NCBI RefSeq assembly: GCF_964213995.1
Contig: NC_135807.1
Location: 66,340,001 to 66,404,000, forward strand
DNA from: Mustelus asterias
Taxonomy: Eukaryota
DNA length: 64,000 nt
Direction: 5' to 3'
Shown here: positions 9,693 through 62,167 of the stretch, piece by piece
How positions within the stretch are numbered: the first letter of the stretch is position 1
Layout: every line of letters starts with the position of its first letter
Made by a program: the position numbers and the translations under genes
Notes under the pieces: generated by a model
Told to the model about the DNA's origin: nothing
The model's input: the letters and a program-made list of their open reading frames with translations, nothing else
The model's database searches: none

Positions 9693-9789
9693 TGTTAAAT
9701 TACTTCTCAAGTGGCTTCTCAACAACTTTCAAACCTGCTGCAGCCAGAAGGATTCCTTTTTCACCTTCAACCTGTCCCAGGGAAAGCCA

Positions 9790-9889
9790 TGATGTGGAGA
9801 TGCCGGCGTTGGACTGGGGTAAACACAGTAAGAAGTTTAACAACACCAGGTTAAAGTCCAACAGGTTTATTTGGTAGCAAAAGCCACAC
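9790..9889 (-). mobile_element. PLE pLTR 3' fragment (family 2)
   Basis: Matches 61234-61297 and 29809-29907 in reverse orientation. TSD AAAGCCA at 9783-9789 and 9890-9896. Confidence 0.85.
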
Positions 9890-10599
9890 AAAGCCAGCAG
9901 AGGGTGGGATCCCATCAGCCTCTTAACCCATATAATTCCTGGGACTTTCCCACCTTGTTCACCCTTAAACTCATCGCCAACAGCTTGGGAAAAGTCCCCC
10001 GAGAACTTGGTCTCCAAATAAATGGTCACTGTTCAGATTTGCCTATAATTTGGTTATGGATTGTACAAATAAAAAAATTCTAAAAAGGCCAACGGCAACT
10101 GTTCACTGTTTAACTTTTTACTTGAGTTCAAGTTAATCTTTGTCCTTGTTTTGAGGAGACTGTTTCCAATTGCTGGTGAGACATTGGAAAAAGTTTCACT
10201 TCATTTGTGAGATTTTTCTATATGTTCAGTGATGTTCATTTATTTGTAAGAAGCCACTTTCAATAGCAAAATCACTCAAAGAATTTTGTGCATAAATAAG
10301 GCGTAATAGCTGGCAGCCAGAATAACTGTTCGATGGTGCAGTTATATGTTTGGGAGTCCAAATAGTAGATTTTCAAGTTTTGAATTCACACATTTGTTCC
10401 AATGCCAGTGTCTCTGGCTTTAGGTTAGATTATTATTTCACTAAAGAGACAACTATTGCAAACCTACTAAAAACTCCAAGTTCTGGTCTTTGTCACATTA
10501 GAATGGAAGGGACAGAAATGTAAAGATTCATTTGATTAATTAGTTTTTAGTCTGTAATGTGATACGATGCATTCACACATTTAATACCAACAGACAACT

Positions 10600-29685: not shown

Positions 29686-29907
29686 ACAGTAAGAAGTCTC
29701 ACAACACCAGGTTAAAGTCCAACAGGTTTATTTGGTAGCAAATACCATAAGCTTTTGGAGCGCTGCCCCTTCGTCAGATGGAGAGGAGGGGCAGCGCTCC
29801 GAAAGCTTATGGTATTTGCTACCAAATAAACCTGTTGGACTTTAATCTGGTGTTGTGAGACTTCTTACTGTGCTTACCCCAGTCCAACGCTGGCATCTCC
29901 ACATCAT
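29686..29907. mobile_element. Inverted-repeat PLE pLTR insertion (family 2) with HHR remnants
   Basis: 85-bp arms at 29686-29770 and 29787-29871 with 2 mismatches. 10-bp direct repeat CTTTCAATTA at 29677-29686 and 29917-29926. Confidence 0.92.
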
Positions 29908-29994
29908 GACTATCATCTTTCAATTAGCCAGGTATAGCTTGCTTTTTTAGAAGTCAATGCTATTTGTTTCAAACTGAGCAACTTGACCCACAAG

Positions 29995-41361: not shown

Positions 41362-41402
41362 GAGCCAACGTTTCGAGTCTGGATGACCCTTCGTCAGAGC
41401 CC
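41362..41402 (-). ncRNA. Minimal hammerhead ribozyme with intact core, within a ~92-bp PLE insertion (41311-41402)
   Basis: Minus strand reads GGGCT-CTGACGA-A-GGGTC-ATCCA-GACTC-GAAA-CG-TT-GGCTC, with a palindromic ACGT loop III. 12-bp TSD ATTATGGATTGT at 41299-41310 and 41406-41417. Confidence 0.8.
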
Positions 41403-54835: not shown

Positions 54836-55752
54836 GTGGGAAGGAAGGATGTGGTGCCTGGAGTTTGGAGCCTACCCCATCTTTCTACTCTTCCTATTCC
54901 TCTATTCTGCAGTTGGAGCTGCACTGCCTGGTTACATCTCCTCCTCCTATTTACACCCCAGACCAAGGGGAACCCTTGGCAAATTTGCTTTGACTGTGCA
55001 CTTCTTTTGTCCTGGTGACTCTTATTAGATCTTTAGAAAGCACAGAACATACATTTTTAGGTAAAGTCTTCAGAGAATTTCTGAAATAAAAATTGATAGA
55101 GTGTAAGTGAAGTCTCCTGATGTGTTTCAGGAGACCTCTTCACATGCAATCTATTTTCAGCAGCAAATTAACACTGATAAGCTGAGTAAGGCTTTAAGTA
55201 GCATTAGAAATACTCAGCAACAATTTCTTTAGTCCTGTTCAGCTGGTCTTTATTAGGAGAAGTTGTTTGCTTAAATGGCATGCAACATAATGAACATGAA
55301 CAGGCAATTTAACGGTCAACGTCTACCTCACAGCTTTCTGCCTCTCTATCTCACTTTCTGCTTCCAGGAAACTCCTTAAAAGCTACCAGTTTGACTAAAC
55401 CTTTGGTCATCTGACCTGGCTTGGTGTCATACTTTGTTTTATAATACTCCTGTGAAGAACCTTAGGTGTTCCATTATATTAAAAACACTATGGGTGGGAT
55501 TTTCTGGTTGTGCCCGCCCAGAGATCGAAAATTCCCACCTGAAGTCAACAGACCTTTAAGCGATCCGCCAAATTTTCCATCCCACCCACTACAATTTTGC
55601 AGAGAAATACTGGGACAGAACTTTGTTATGATCATTTTTAAGCCAATTAATTTGTGATGTGTTTGGTATATATACCAGAACCAAAGGACTTGGATTCACC
55701 CCAAATTAAACCTCTGGTATTATCCCCACAATTGCACAAATTAATGATGAGC

Positions 55753-55790
55753 TGTTGGACTTTAACCTGGTGTTGTTAAACTTCTTACTG
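55753..55790 (+). mobile_element. Tiny PLE family-2 fragment
   Basis: CTGTTGGACTTTAACCTGGTGTTGTTAAACTTCTTACTGT matches 61259-61297. Confidence 0.8.
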
Positions 55791-56279
55791 TCTAGACTCA
55801 GCAGCCAGGGGAAACATTCTCTCCACATCTACCTTGTACGAATGTTGTAAATTTCAATGATATCACCTTTTATTCTTTGAAATTCTAGAGGATAGGCCCA
55901 GTCTCTTAATCTTTCCTCATAGGATGATCATACCAGCCCTGGGATTAGTCTTGTCAACCTCCATTGCACTTAATCTCTGGCAAGTATATCCTTCCTTAAA
56001 TAAGGAGACTAAAACTGCATGCAATACTTCAGGTGCAGTTTCACATGGAGATGCACATCGAGCATCTTGTGTCCTCACAGCAGCACTCATCCAAGCAAGT
56101 GGAAAGTATTCTATCACACTCTTAAGCTCCATTGAGCTGTCAATGGAATCTTTCTCAAAGCACTACACCTTGTTTGAGATCAAAGGGTTCCATTAGAATG
56201 GAGAAGTTATCAAAGAATTCAGGAAGCCTCAGAAACTTCAAACCAAAGCTGTGTGCATACATTTGGGATGAGTGTACAG

Positions 56280-61072: not shown

Positions 61073-61297
61073 CACGCAAAACTCACGTTGTTTTGTTTCT
61101 TAAAGACTTGATTAGTTGTAAGTATTCGCATTCCAACCATTATTCATGTAAATTGAGTTTGTGTCTTTATATGCTCTGTTTGTGAACAGAATTCCCACTC
61201 ACCTGAAGAAGGGGCTTGGAGCTCCGAAAGCTTGTGTGGCTTTTGCTACCAAATAAACCTGTTGGACTTTAACCTGGTGTTGTTAAACTTCTGACTG
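61073..61297 (+). mobile_element. PLE family-2 pLTR segment
   Basis: 13-bp TSD TGAATCCCAATCT at 61060-61072 and 61298-61310. Contains a TATA-like TTTATAT and an HHR. Confidence 0.88.
61200..61236 (+). ncRNA. Minimal hammerhead ribozyme with intact core
   Basis: CAC-CTGAAGA-A-GGGGC-TTGGA-GCTCC-GAAA-GC-TT-GTG, with a palindromic AGCT loop III. Predicted cleavage at 61233/61234. Confidence 0.82.
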
Positions 61298-61335
61298 TGA
61301 ATCCCAATCTGCCAGTCCCTCATTCCAGTCTCTCT

Positions 61336-61460: not shown

Positions 61461-61570
61461 ATCTGTTTCTTCAGAGCCCCATTCTTTGACCTCTTTCATC
61501 AATCTCCCTCACTCAATCATTCCTTCAACTACATTCCTGTCACTCCCTCCCCTGGTCTCCAGTTCACTGT

Positions 61571-61628
61571 AAGAGTTTTAACAACGCCAGGTTAAAGTCC
61601 AACAGGTTTATTTGGTAGCAAATACCAT
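61571..61628 (-). mobile_element. 58-bp PLE family-2 fragment
   Basis: 13-bp TSD TCCAGTTCACTGT at 61558-61570 and 61629-61641. Matches the pLTR sequence immediately downstream of the HHR. Confidence 0.88.
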
Positions 61629-62167
61629 TCCAGTTCACTGTCACTGCCCCTGCCCATGCCTCAGTACATAGAACATAGAACATAGAACGGTACAGCACAG
61701 TACAGGCCCTTCGGCCCTCGATGTTGTGCCGAGCTTTGTCTGAAACTGAAACACTGAAAGTCCACTGAAACTCCCCTCACCCAAACCCCAGTCTGGTCAT
61801 CTGTTCCCTGCAGAGCCATGACCCATAGTCCCTATTTGCCCTCTTCCAAACAACACTGTTCCTCACCATCCTCTCTCTCTCTCTCCCTCTCACTCTACCC
61901 CACTCAACTCTGGGAAGCTCCGTTAGCTGGTGCTATTGCTGGTCAGCCCCATTCAGGCCCAGCTCTCCCAGTGAAAGTTGGTGACGTGGTGGAGCAGGGC
62001 AGCGGCTGCAGCAGTGAGAAATTGTAAGGGTGCAGTTCTGCTGGGGCGCTTGCAGGAGTACCCTGTAGGTTCATGCCACATTCCTAGAGATTTTCTGGCA
62101 ACCTGGGAGCGTTGGAAATGCTAGAGTACATGTGACATTGCATTAGTAATAATAGAATAGAAACAAC

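Follow-up and report, generated by a model that had tools for sequence, protein, structure and literature searches.

The window analysed here, a 64-kb stretch (64,000 nucleotides) of Mustelus asterias DNA, holds six arms of one family of Penelope-like element (PLE) pLTRs, and the feature under study is a 58-bp minus-strand insert of this family that reads ATGGTATTTGC...AAAACTCTT and is flanked on both sides by the 13-mer TCCAGTTCACTGT (Table 1). The positions of the insert and of both repeats, as well as its starting sequence, were verified as given in the preliminary description. Counting from a predicted hammerhead cut, with +1 as the first base 3' of it, the insert spans from +1 to the first internal reverse-transcription (RT) start (CTCTT/AC). 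As its 3' end overlaps the left repeat by two exact bases, or six with one mismatch, the duplication measures 11–13 bp, which fits target-primed retro-insertion and falls within the 9–15 bp found for 30 other copies of the family; the overlap itself would be consistent with priming microhomology. The insert represents a micro-copy of a Neptune-type Penelope-like pLTR, bounded by a target duplication. An identity as non-LTR retrozyme was rejected, the insert being a single unit without ribozyme core as opposed to tandem units with complete hammerheads. No empty-site homologue of the insert's flank was found among the 40 candidates scored, and Rfam at its gathering threshold gave zero matches within the window.

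Table 1 Features of the main pLTR family and of a second hammerhead-like family in the 64-kb window.
Feature	Position	Strand	Remark
pLTR fragment, Neptune-type Penelope-like element	61571..61628	minus	58 bp, no tail
Target-site duplication, element 3' side	61558..61570		shares its last 2 bases (6 with one mismatch) with element
Target-site duplication, element 5' side	61629..61641		61629 is the -1 base (A) of the insert's subfamily
Head-to-head inverted pair, T^ATGG subfamily	29686..29915	both arms	tail on one arm only
GTGTGG-subfamily neighbour copy with complete minimal hammerhead	61200..61299	plus	cut predicted after 61233, intact in DNA
5'-truncated GTGTGG-subfamily copy with tail	9782..9891	minus	boundary ~-2
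Short fragment, same pLTR as insert	55752..55791	plus	boundary ~+22
Second family, hammerhead-like motif (CG palindrome)	41364..41400	minus	older than main family

In the 3.68-Gb assembly, where the window is C7:66340001-66404000, a 17-mer of the pLTR has 213,522 exact copies and a 34-mer 140,369. Long copies extend upstream into an ORF with an RT (YIDD), a C-x4-C-x2-C linker and a GIY-YIG domain. At one locus (L065), upstream of the same pLTR, the RVT_1 match lies above the cut-off (E 1.9e-7) and that to GIY-YIG just below it (E 2e-4, 21.9 bits, cut-off 22.6), and the C-x4-C-x2-C satisfies the CX2-5CxxC pattern of the zinc-finger-like linker between RT and endonuclease in Neptune. Such a linker is described as common to Neptune and Nematis (PMC8557442). 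Placed by its domains and linker, the parent is an EN+ Penelope-like element of Neptune type with the Neptune/Nematis layout, and as such a typical member of an already known clade.

The ORF appears to start ~99 nt past the cut, and the 3' ends of the family form two clusters, at ~+60 and ~+99 from the cut. More than 500 loose ends in contig set X15, which is perhaps not independent of the assembly, agree with these two 3' ends. The pLTR has an optional tail and inverted 5' copies, and in 12 of 13 head-to-head pairs just one arm has the tail, which suggests that both target strands were primed, one at each internal RT start, i.e. twin priming. The tail measures 35–40 nt (pairs at L009, L051, L053, L056, L058, L061, L070, L075, L165, L199, L216 and L407, and the pair in the window). 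Tail-less 3' ends often share 2–6 nt (AC, ACTGTG) with the target duplication, as at L082, L119, L151, L167, L196 and positions 61565–61570 of the window; these shared bases are apparent microhomology priming. Just upstream of helix I, 19 copies contain a GTAAGT...CAG motif of 71–72 nt (pLTR ~-125 to -45 from the cut; e.g. L065, L060), with GTAGAG and GTAAAG variants in other subfamilies, which resembles a retained Penelope intron in its sequence. In unselected arms, 29/118 element-derived junctions lie at -45 to -30, immediately 5' of helix I and close to the acceptor-like CAG.

Hammerhead ribozymes cut 3' of an NUH triplet. The pLTR shows the features of a minimal type-I hammerhead, namely CUGANGA and GAAA cores, the NUH and palindromic positions 15.2/16.2, with stems I and II present in the predicted fold. 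Among 156 cores from the fetched loci, the NUH base H17 is T in 110, A in 42, C in 2 and G in 2 (not G in 154), and positions 15.2/16.2 form a GC palindrome in 151. T-A forms the first stem-I pair in 89 cores and C-G in 56, a covariation that counts as one or few events because the 156 cores are related copies. The assignment of the predicted cut fits the hammerhead descriptor; folding z-scores of the hammerhead region included none that was significant. In the neighbour copy, the complete hammerhead occupies 61200–61236. The preliminary description had instead compared the insert with an allegedly hammerhead-bearing copy of the same subfamily: GAAAGCTT|ATGG is indeed present at 29801–29812, inside the head-to-head pair, but neither arm of this copy at 29.7 kb has a complete ribozyme (the plus arm is without CUGANGA, the minus arm has AAAA instead of GAAA), and the subfamily was wrong, as the insert's marker TAAAACTC goes with A at -1. 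Minimal PLE hammerheads have been reported to cut poorly in vitro, as dimers (PMC4209133; PMC6765202). Exact copies spanning an intact cut number 28,474 in the genome, and the cut site is kept, i.e. read through, in 124 of 142 unselected arms, just one of which ends at +1/+2.

A marker situated 49 nt further downstream tracks the base at -1: among intact ATGGT copies, 74/75 with GAGACTTC have T there, and 12/14 with TAAAACTC, which the insert carries, have A. The closest genomic relatives of the insert match it at 98% over positions 61565–61629 of the window, the first base of the right repeat included. As these relatives have A, not T, at -1, the 5' end of the insert lies at +1 or at -1 (1-nt microhomology); the proposal that it starts exactly after the NUH thus agrees with +1 of the predicted cut, although the boundary itself is ambiguous. 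With unique-flank +1 ends making up ~0.7% of main-subfamily copies (80 of ~11,500 per Gb) and six family arms in the window, the coincidence in this one insert is weak evidence, and what exceeds chance is the population excess, not the single copy. The chance that the insert itself is cleavage-derived is about one in two.

Because one case proves little, 5' ends were counted genome-wide. The search selected copies that agree with the element beginning at a chosen position and differ from it at six upstream positions; the listed places were fetched and the 50 nt upstream classed as element-derived or unique by 12-mer content. The main test was restricted to unique flanks, since passage through the filter is deterministic for inverted junctions, which also have microhomology hot spots. 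A boundary search with a reference arm was set aside, having returned best full-length matches only. For the main ATGG subfamily (marker GAGACTTC, T at -1; script-classified and complete for C1 to C9:35 Mb), 15 unique-flank ends fall at +1 and 1, 2, 2 and 0 at -1, -2, -3 and -4 (p = 2e-7 for +1 against -1 to -4, marker-assigned), and a duplication was found for 8 of the 15 copies ending at +1. The smaller tier of the T subfamily that is complete from +5 to -4 gave 2, 3, 1, 6, 8, 1, 1, 0 and 0 ends, and the A subfamily 4, 4, 0, 3 and 0 over +1 to -4 with unique flanks.

Control windows on either side supplied the local background. Upstream, positions -4 to -16 gave 219 matches, with 67 distinct among the first 72 rows classed, 14 of them unique and at most two per position; downstream, +6 to +18 gave 1,487 matches over all subfamilies, 50 of which were classed and 15 found unique. 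A further window from -17 to -28 yielded 230 matches, close to the other upstream window, and the first third of its rows, inspected by eye, were without obvious peak. Under assumed rates of passing the filter (43% GC) and a loss of 2.4% per base, the +1 rate exceeds the upstream rate 10.4-fold (95% CI 4.7–23; p = 8e-9) and the downstream rate 3.7- to 4.8-fold (p = 5e-4 to 4e-5). The histogram of 5' boundaries that the preliminary description called for hence peaks at the NUH site, at 4–10 times the local background in the ATGG subfamily, with an excess also in two sister subfamilies.

Over the whole genome, the filtered counts for the ATGGT subfamilies were 658 from +5, 412 from +2 and 329 from +1, and exact ends of all junction types under the same filter numbered 36 at +4, 29 at +3 and 83 at +2, so that a shoulder at +2 accompanies the +1 excess. 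Among the 329 matches, 98 of the 100 first listed were placed, with 47, 20, 11, 7 and 13 at +1, -1, -2, -3 and -4, from which ~150 of the 329 are extrapolated to end at +1. The +1 share over all junction types is estimated at ~3% of arms, or roughly 1–3% overall. A subfamily-blind count (56 at +1 versus 83 at +2) was rejected once the marker linkage had been measured; it looks flat because A-flanked ends are filed under -1.

The GTGTGG subfamily has its cut 2 nt further from the conserved core, with G as +1. Its exact counts were 435 at +1, 175 at +2, 254 at +3 (where the cut site of the GTGG subfamily itself, with its upstream ends, is counted too) and a sum of 274 for -1 to -4. By distance, the top bin is the equivalent of the ATGG -2 bin; since the excess shifts by 2 nt together with the cut, it tracks the ribozyme rather than the spacing to the RT start. 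Unique-looking rows judged by eye numbered 12, 7, 3, 3 and 3 among 100 over +1 to -4 (p = 0.002), of which one at +1 and one at -1 later proved element-derived; per Gb, again by eye, they amount to ~20 at +1, ~16 at +2 and ~16 at +3. In 30 script-classed rows, the unique flanks were flat (1, 3, 2, 1 and 2; 9 copies) and 12 of 21 element-derived junctions lay at +1, the filter being non-random for the latter. For the A^ATGGC subfamily, with 130 matches, unique-looking rows judged by eye were 11, 14, 8, 6 and 3 over +1 to -4, i.e. 25/42 at +1/-1 against 15 expected (p = 0.002).

Two further arrangements centre on the same base. Perfect palindromes with both arms ending at +1 were recognized by eye at 12 loci among 100 GTGTGG rows, and micro-tandems whose successive units start at +1 were found at L185 and, with one extra T, at L160; together, micro-tandems and cut-centred palindromes point to a free RNA end. 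Some micro-tandems (L113, L126, L160, L185, L093, L049, L305) run through the tail and the first 70–90 nt of the ORF before jumping to a second pLTR unit, suggesting a third 3' end or a site of template jumping at ~+170 to +190. The short fillers seen between duplication and +1 repeat part of the element's start (ATGGTATT-like; L131, L164, L187, L188, L193, L251), as expected from aborted and restarted second-strand synthesis. There are also short tandem arrays with 31–32-nt or 61-nt units beginning at +1 or -1 (C3:138482961-138483088, C18:34326101-34326291 and C5:18281820-18281915).

The second hammerhead-like family showed no peak at its predicted cut, with ~17, 11, ~17 and ~18 of 64 rows at +1, -1, -2 and -3/-4 by eye; these rows include internal deletions, and both cut and polarity are predicted. 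As the filter design was the same, the design alone creates no peak, and the +1 peak is shown not to be universal among hammerhead-like families. Insertions of the main family lie within a few bases of the second family's predicted cut at four fetched loci (L108, L118, L199 and L200).

The +1 excess would be explained by RT run-off on hammerhead-cleaved RNA, a cause to which we assign a probability of about 60%, and the enrichment is likely the trace of the ribozyme having cut a small fraction of germline RNAs. In such a process, the element endonuclease would nick the target and cDNA synthesis would be primed internally, ~60 or 99 nt downstream of the cut, through 2–6 nt of microhomology. Where the template had been cleaved, the RT would stop at +1 after 58–99 nt, often adding or repeating a base, and the cDNA end would then connect with the second nick, with a second cDNA (giving palindromes) or with another template (giving micro-tandems). 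Because most arms read through the site, cleavage would be inefficient or late, perhaps dimer- or protein-assisted, and most templates would remain uncut. The fuller account, in which germline cutting by the minimal PLE hammerheads is precise to the single nucleotide and protein-bound cut RNA gives rise, via twin priming and template jumping, to 58–99-bp micro-insertions, cut-centred palindromes and cut-to-start tandems, is one to which we give even odds. The earlier view of the insert as a fossil of a self-cleaved, retrotransposed RNA is partly backed by the population excess at +1, which concerns only ~1–3% of arms, while the copy that prompted it is ambiguous.

As the evidence consists of DNA ends and not of cleavage itself, an RT stop or a transcription start at the same base retains some probability. 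The RT could pause, or release its cDNA, on uncut RNA at the folded core or at a cDNA-end hairpin, aided by A/T microhomology. In the ATGG subfamilies, the cDNA from +1 to +24 indeed forms a hairpin closing at +3 (-4.0 and -3.2 kcal/mol), +2 is raised as well (83), flank bases adjoining the boundaries are A-rich (0.34–0.37) and inverted junctions have microhomology hot spots. The corresponding GTGTGG hairpin, however, has little stability (-1.8) and stops 8 nt short of +1, although +1 is the top bin, and this subfamily starts with G, which makes A-microhomology inapplicable. Further, the A-run at -5 to -7 shows only 2, 1 and 0 ends, and the stronger, GC-rich stem II is without comparable stop (2 ends each at -8 and -9). 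We regard pausing as unlikely because stem II causes no stop and the GTGTGG hairpin is weak and ends elsewhere. Should the excess instead stem from random 5' truncation, +1 would be a chance end and the peak a product of filter, sampling or classification. Duplication-bounded copies do end at every position from +5 to -3, the subfamily-blind count is flat, several tallies were made by eye and the second family is flat; against this, the naive count misfiles A-flanked ends as -1, whereas assignment by the 74/75 marker gives the two small p values above (8e-9 and 2e-7), and an identical filter design yields no peak in the second family. This is the least probable of the explanations weighed here.

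If +1 were a transcription start in the pLTR promoter, the same run-off cDNA would result without cleavage. Initiators follow a pyrimidine-purine pattern, and T|A and T|G at the boundary agree with it. In addition, among the non-T unique-looking GTGTGG rows, about half (by eye) have G before +1, which a copied cap would produce, and pLTRs are described as having an internal promoter (PMC2377424). In D. virilis, though, the start reported there lies 46 nt upstream of a 75-nt intron, hence >120 nt upstream in all (PMC2377424), and the intron's 3' end maps at helix I (PMC4209133); the GTAAGT...CAG motif just upstream of helix I suggests that the layout here is as in D. virilis. Of 16 main-subfamily copies, 10 have A before +1, three C, two G and one T, which leaves the main subfamily without cap-G excess; the A^ATGG subfamily, for its part, is without pyrimidine at -1 but still has its excess at +1/-1. 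Given the lack of extra G in the main subfamily and the intron-like motif upstream of helix I, a start site at +1 is disfavoured and appears somewhat less probable than an RT pause. Run-off on cleaved RNA remains our preferred cause, and if the fuller account above holds, the height of the +1 peak would serve as a fossil read-out of a family's in vivo cleavage rate, a few percent here and near zero in the second family. The +1 excess in a family of >200,000 copies provides a DNA-only assay that can be used on any assembly. It also suggests that few templates are cleaved and that these yield dead scraps, in better agreement with a limiting or incidental role of the ribozyme than with an obligatory maturation step.

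When compared to known PLEs, the element is alike in its RT followed by Cys linker and GIY-YIG, the palindromic minimal helix III, the extra base before stem II, 5' truncation, inverted 5' copies and the optional 30–40 bp tail, as these are described in PMC8557442. The paper reporting the discovery of PLE hammerheads describes in vivo evidence as lacking (PMC4209133), and a later one calls the function of the ribozyme unclear (PMC8557442); a histogram of genomic ends at the cut, as given here, is absent from the relevant sections of both. Our literature search, of incomplete coverage so that a prior mention is possible, returned no histogram of insertion ends at a hammerhead cut. The new point is population-level DNA evidence on in vivo cutting by minimal PLE hammerheads.

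Poseidon_Ac (PAc) is similar in that two internal RT starts define 3' ends with and without tail, and in that uncut RNA is the dominant template (PMC11167929, Frangieh et al. 2024). It differs in belonging to the Poseidon clade and in the start of its ORF inside the ribozyme, compared to ~99 nt after the cut here, and its priming is described as non-homologous, whereas 3' joints here often share 2–6 nt with the target (PMC11167929). According to the results given in the same source, ribozyme mutants left PAc insertion in vitro unchanged, and RNA reads from Anolis neither began nor ended at the cut (PMC11167929). Metazoan non-LTR retrozymes share the type-I hammerhead, a link to PLE pLTRs and tandem units, but are described as ribozyme-to-ribozyme repeats with circular RNAs (PMC7229834; bioRxiv 10.64898/2026.07.22.740005), while the insert studied here has lost the ribozyme and spans from the cut to an internal RT start. 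For the HDV-like ribozyme of R2, the self-cleavage site is likewise recorded as a genomic 5' junction, with variable microhomology joints (PMC3774820, Eickbush et al. 2013). There, the cut defines full-length elements (PMC3774820), whereas in the present family it lies inside the pLTR and cut templates would give only 58–99-nt scraps in a few percent of arms.
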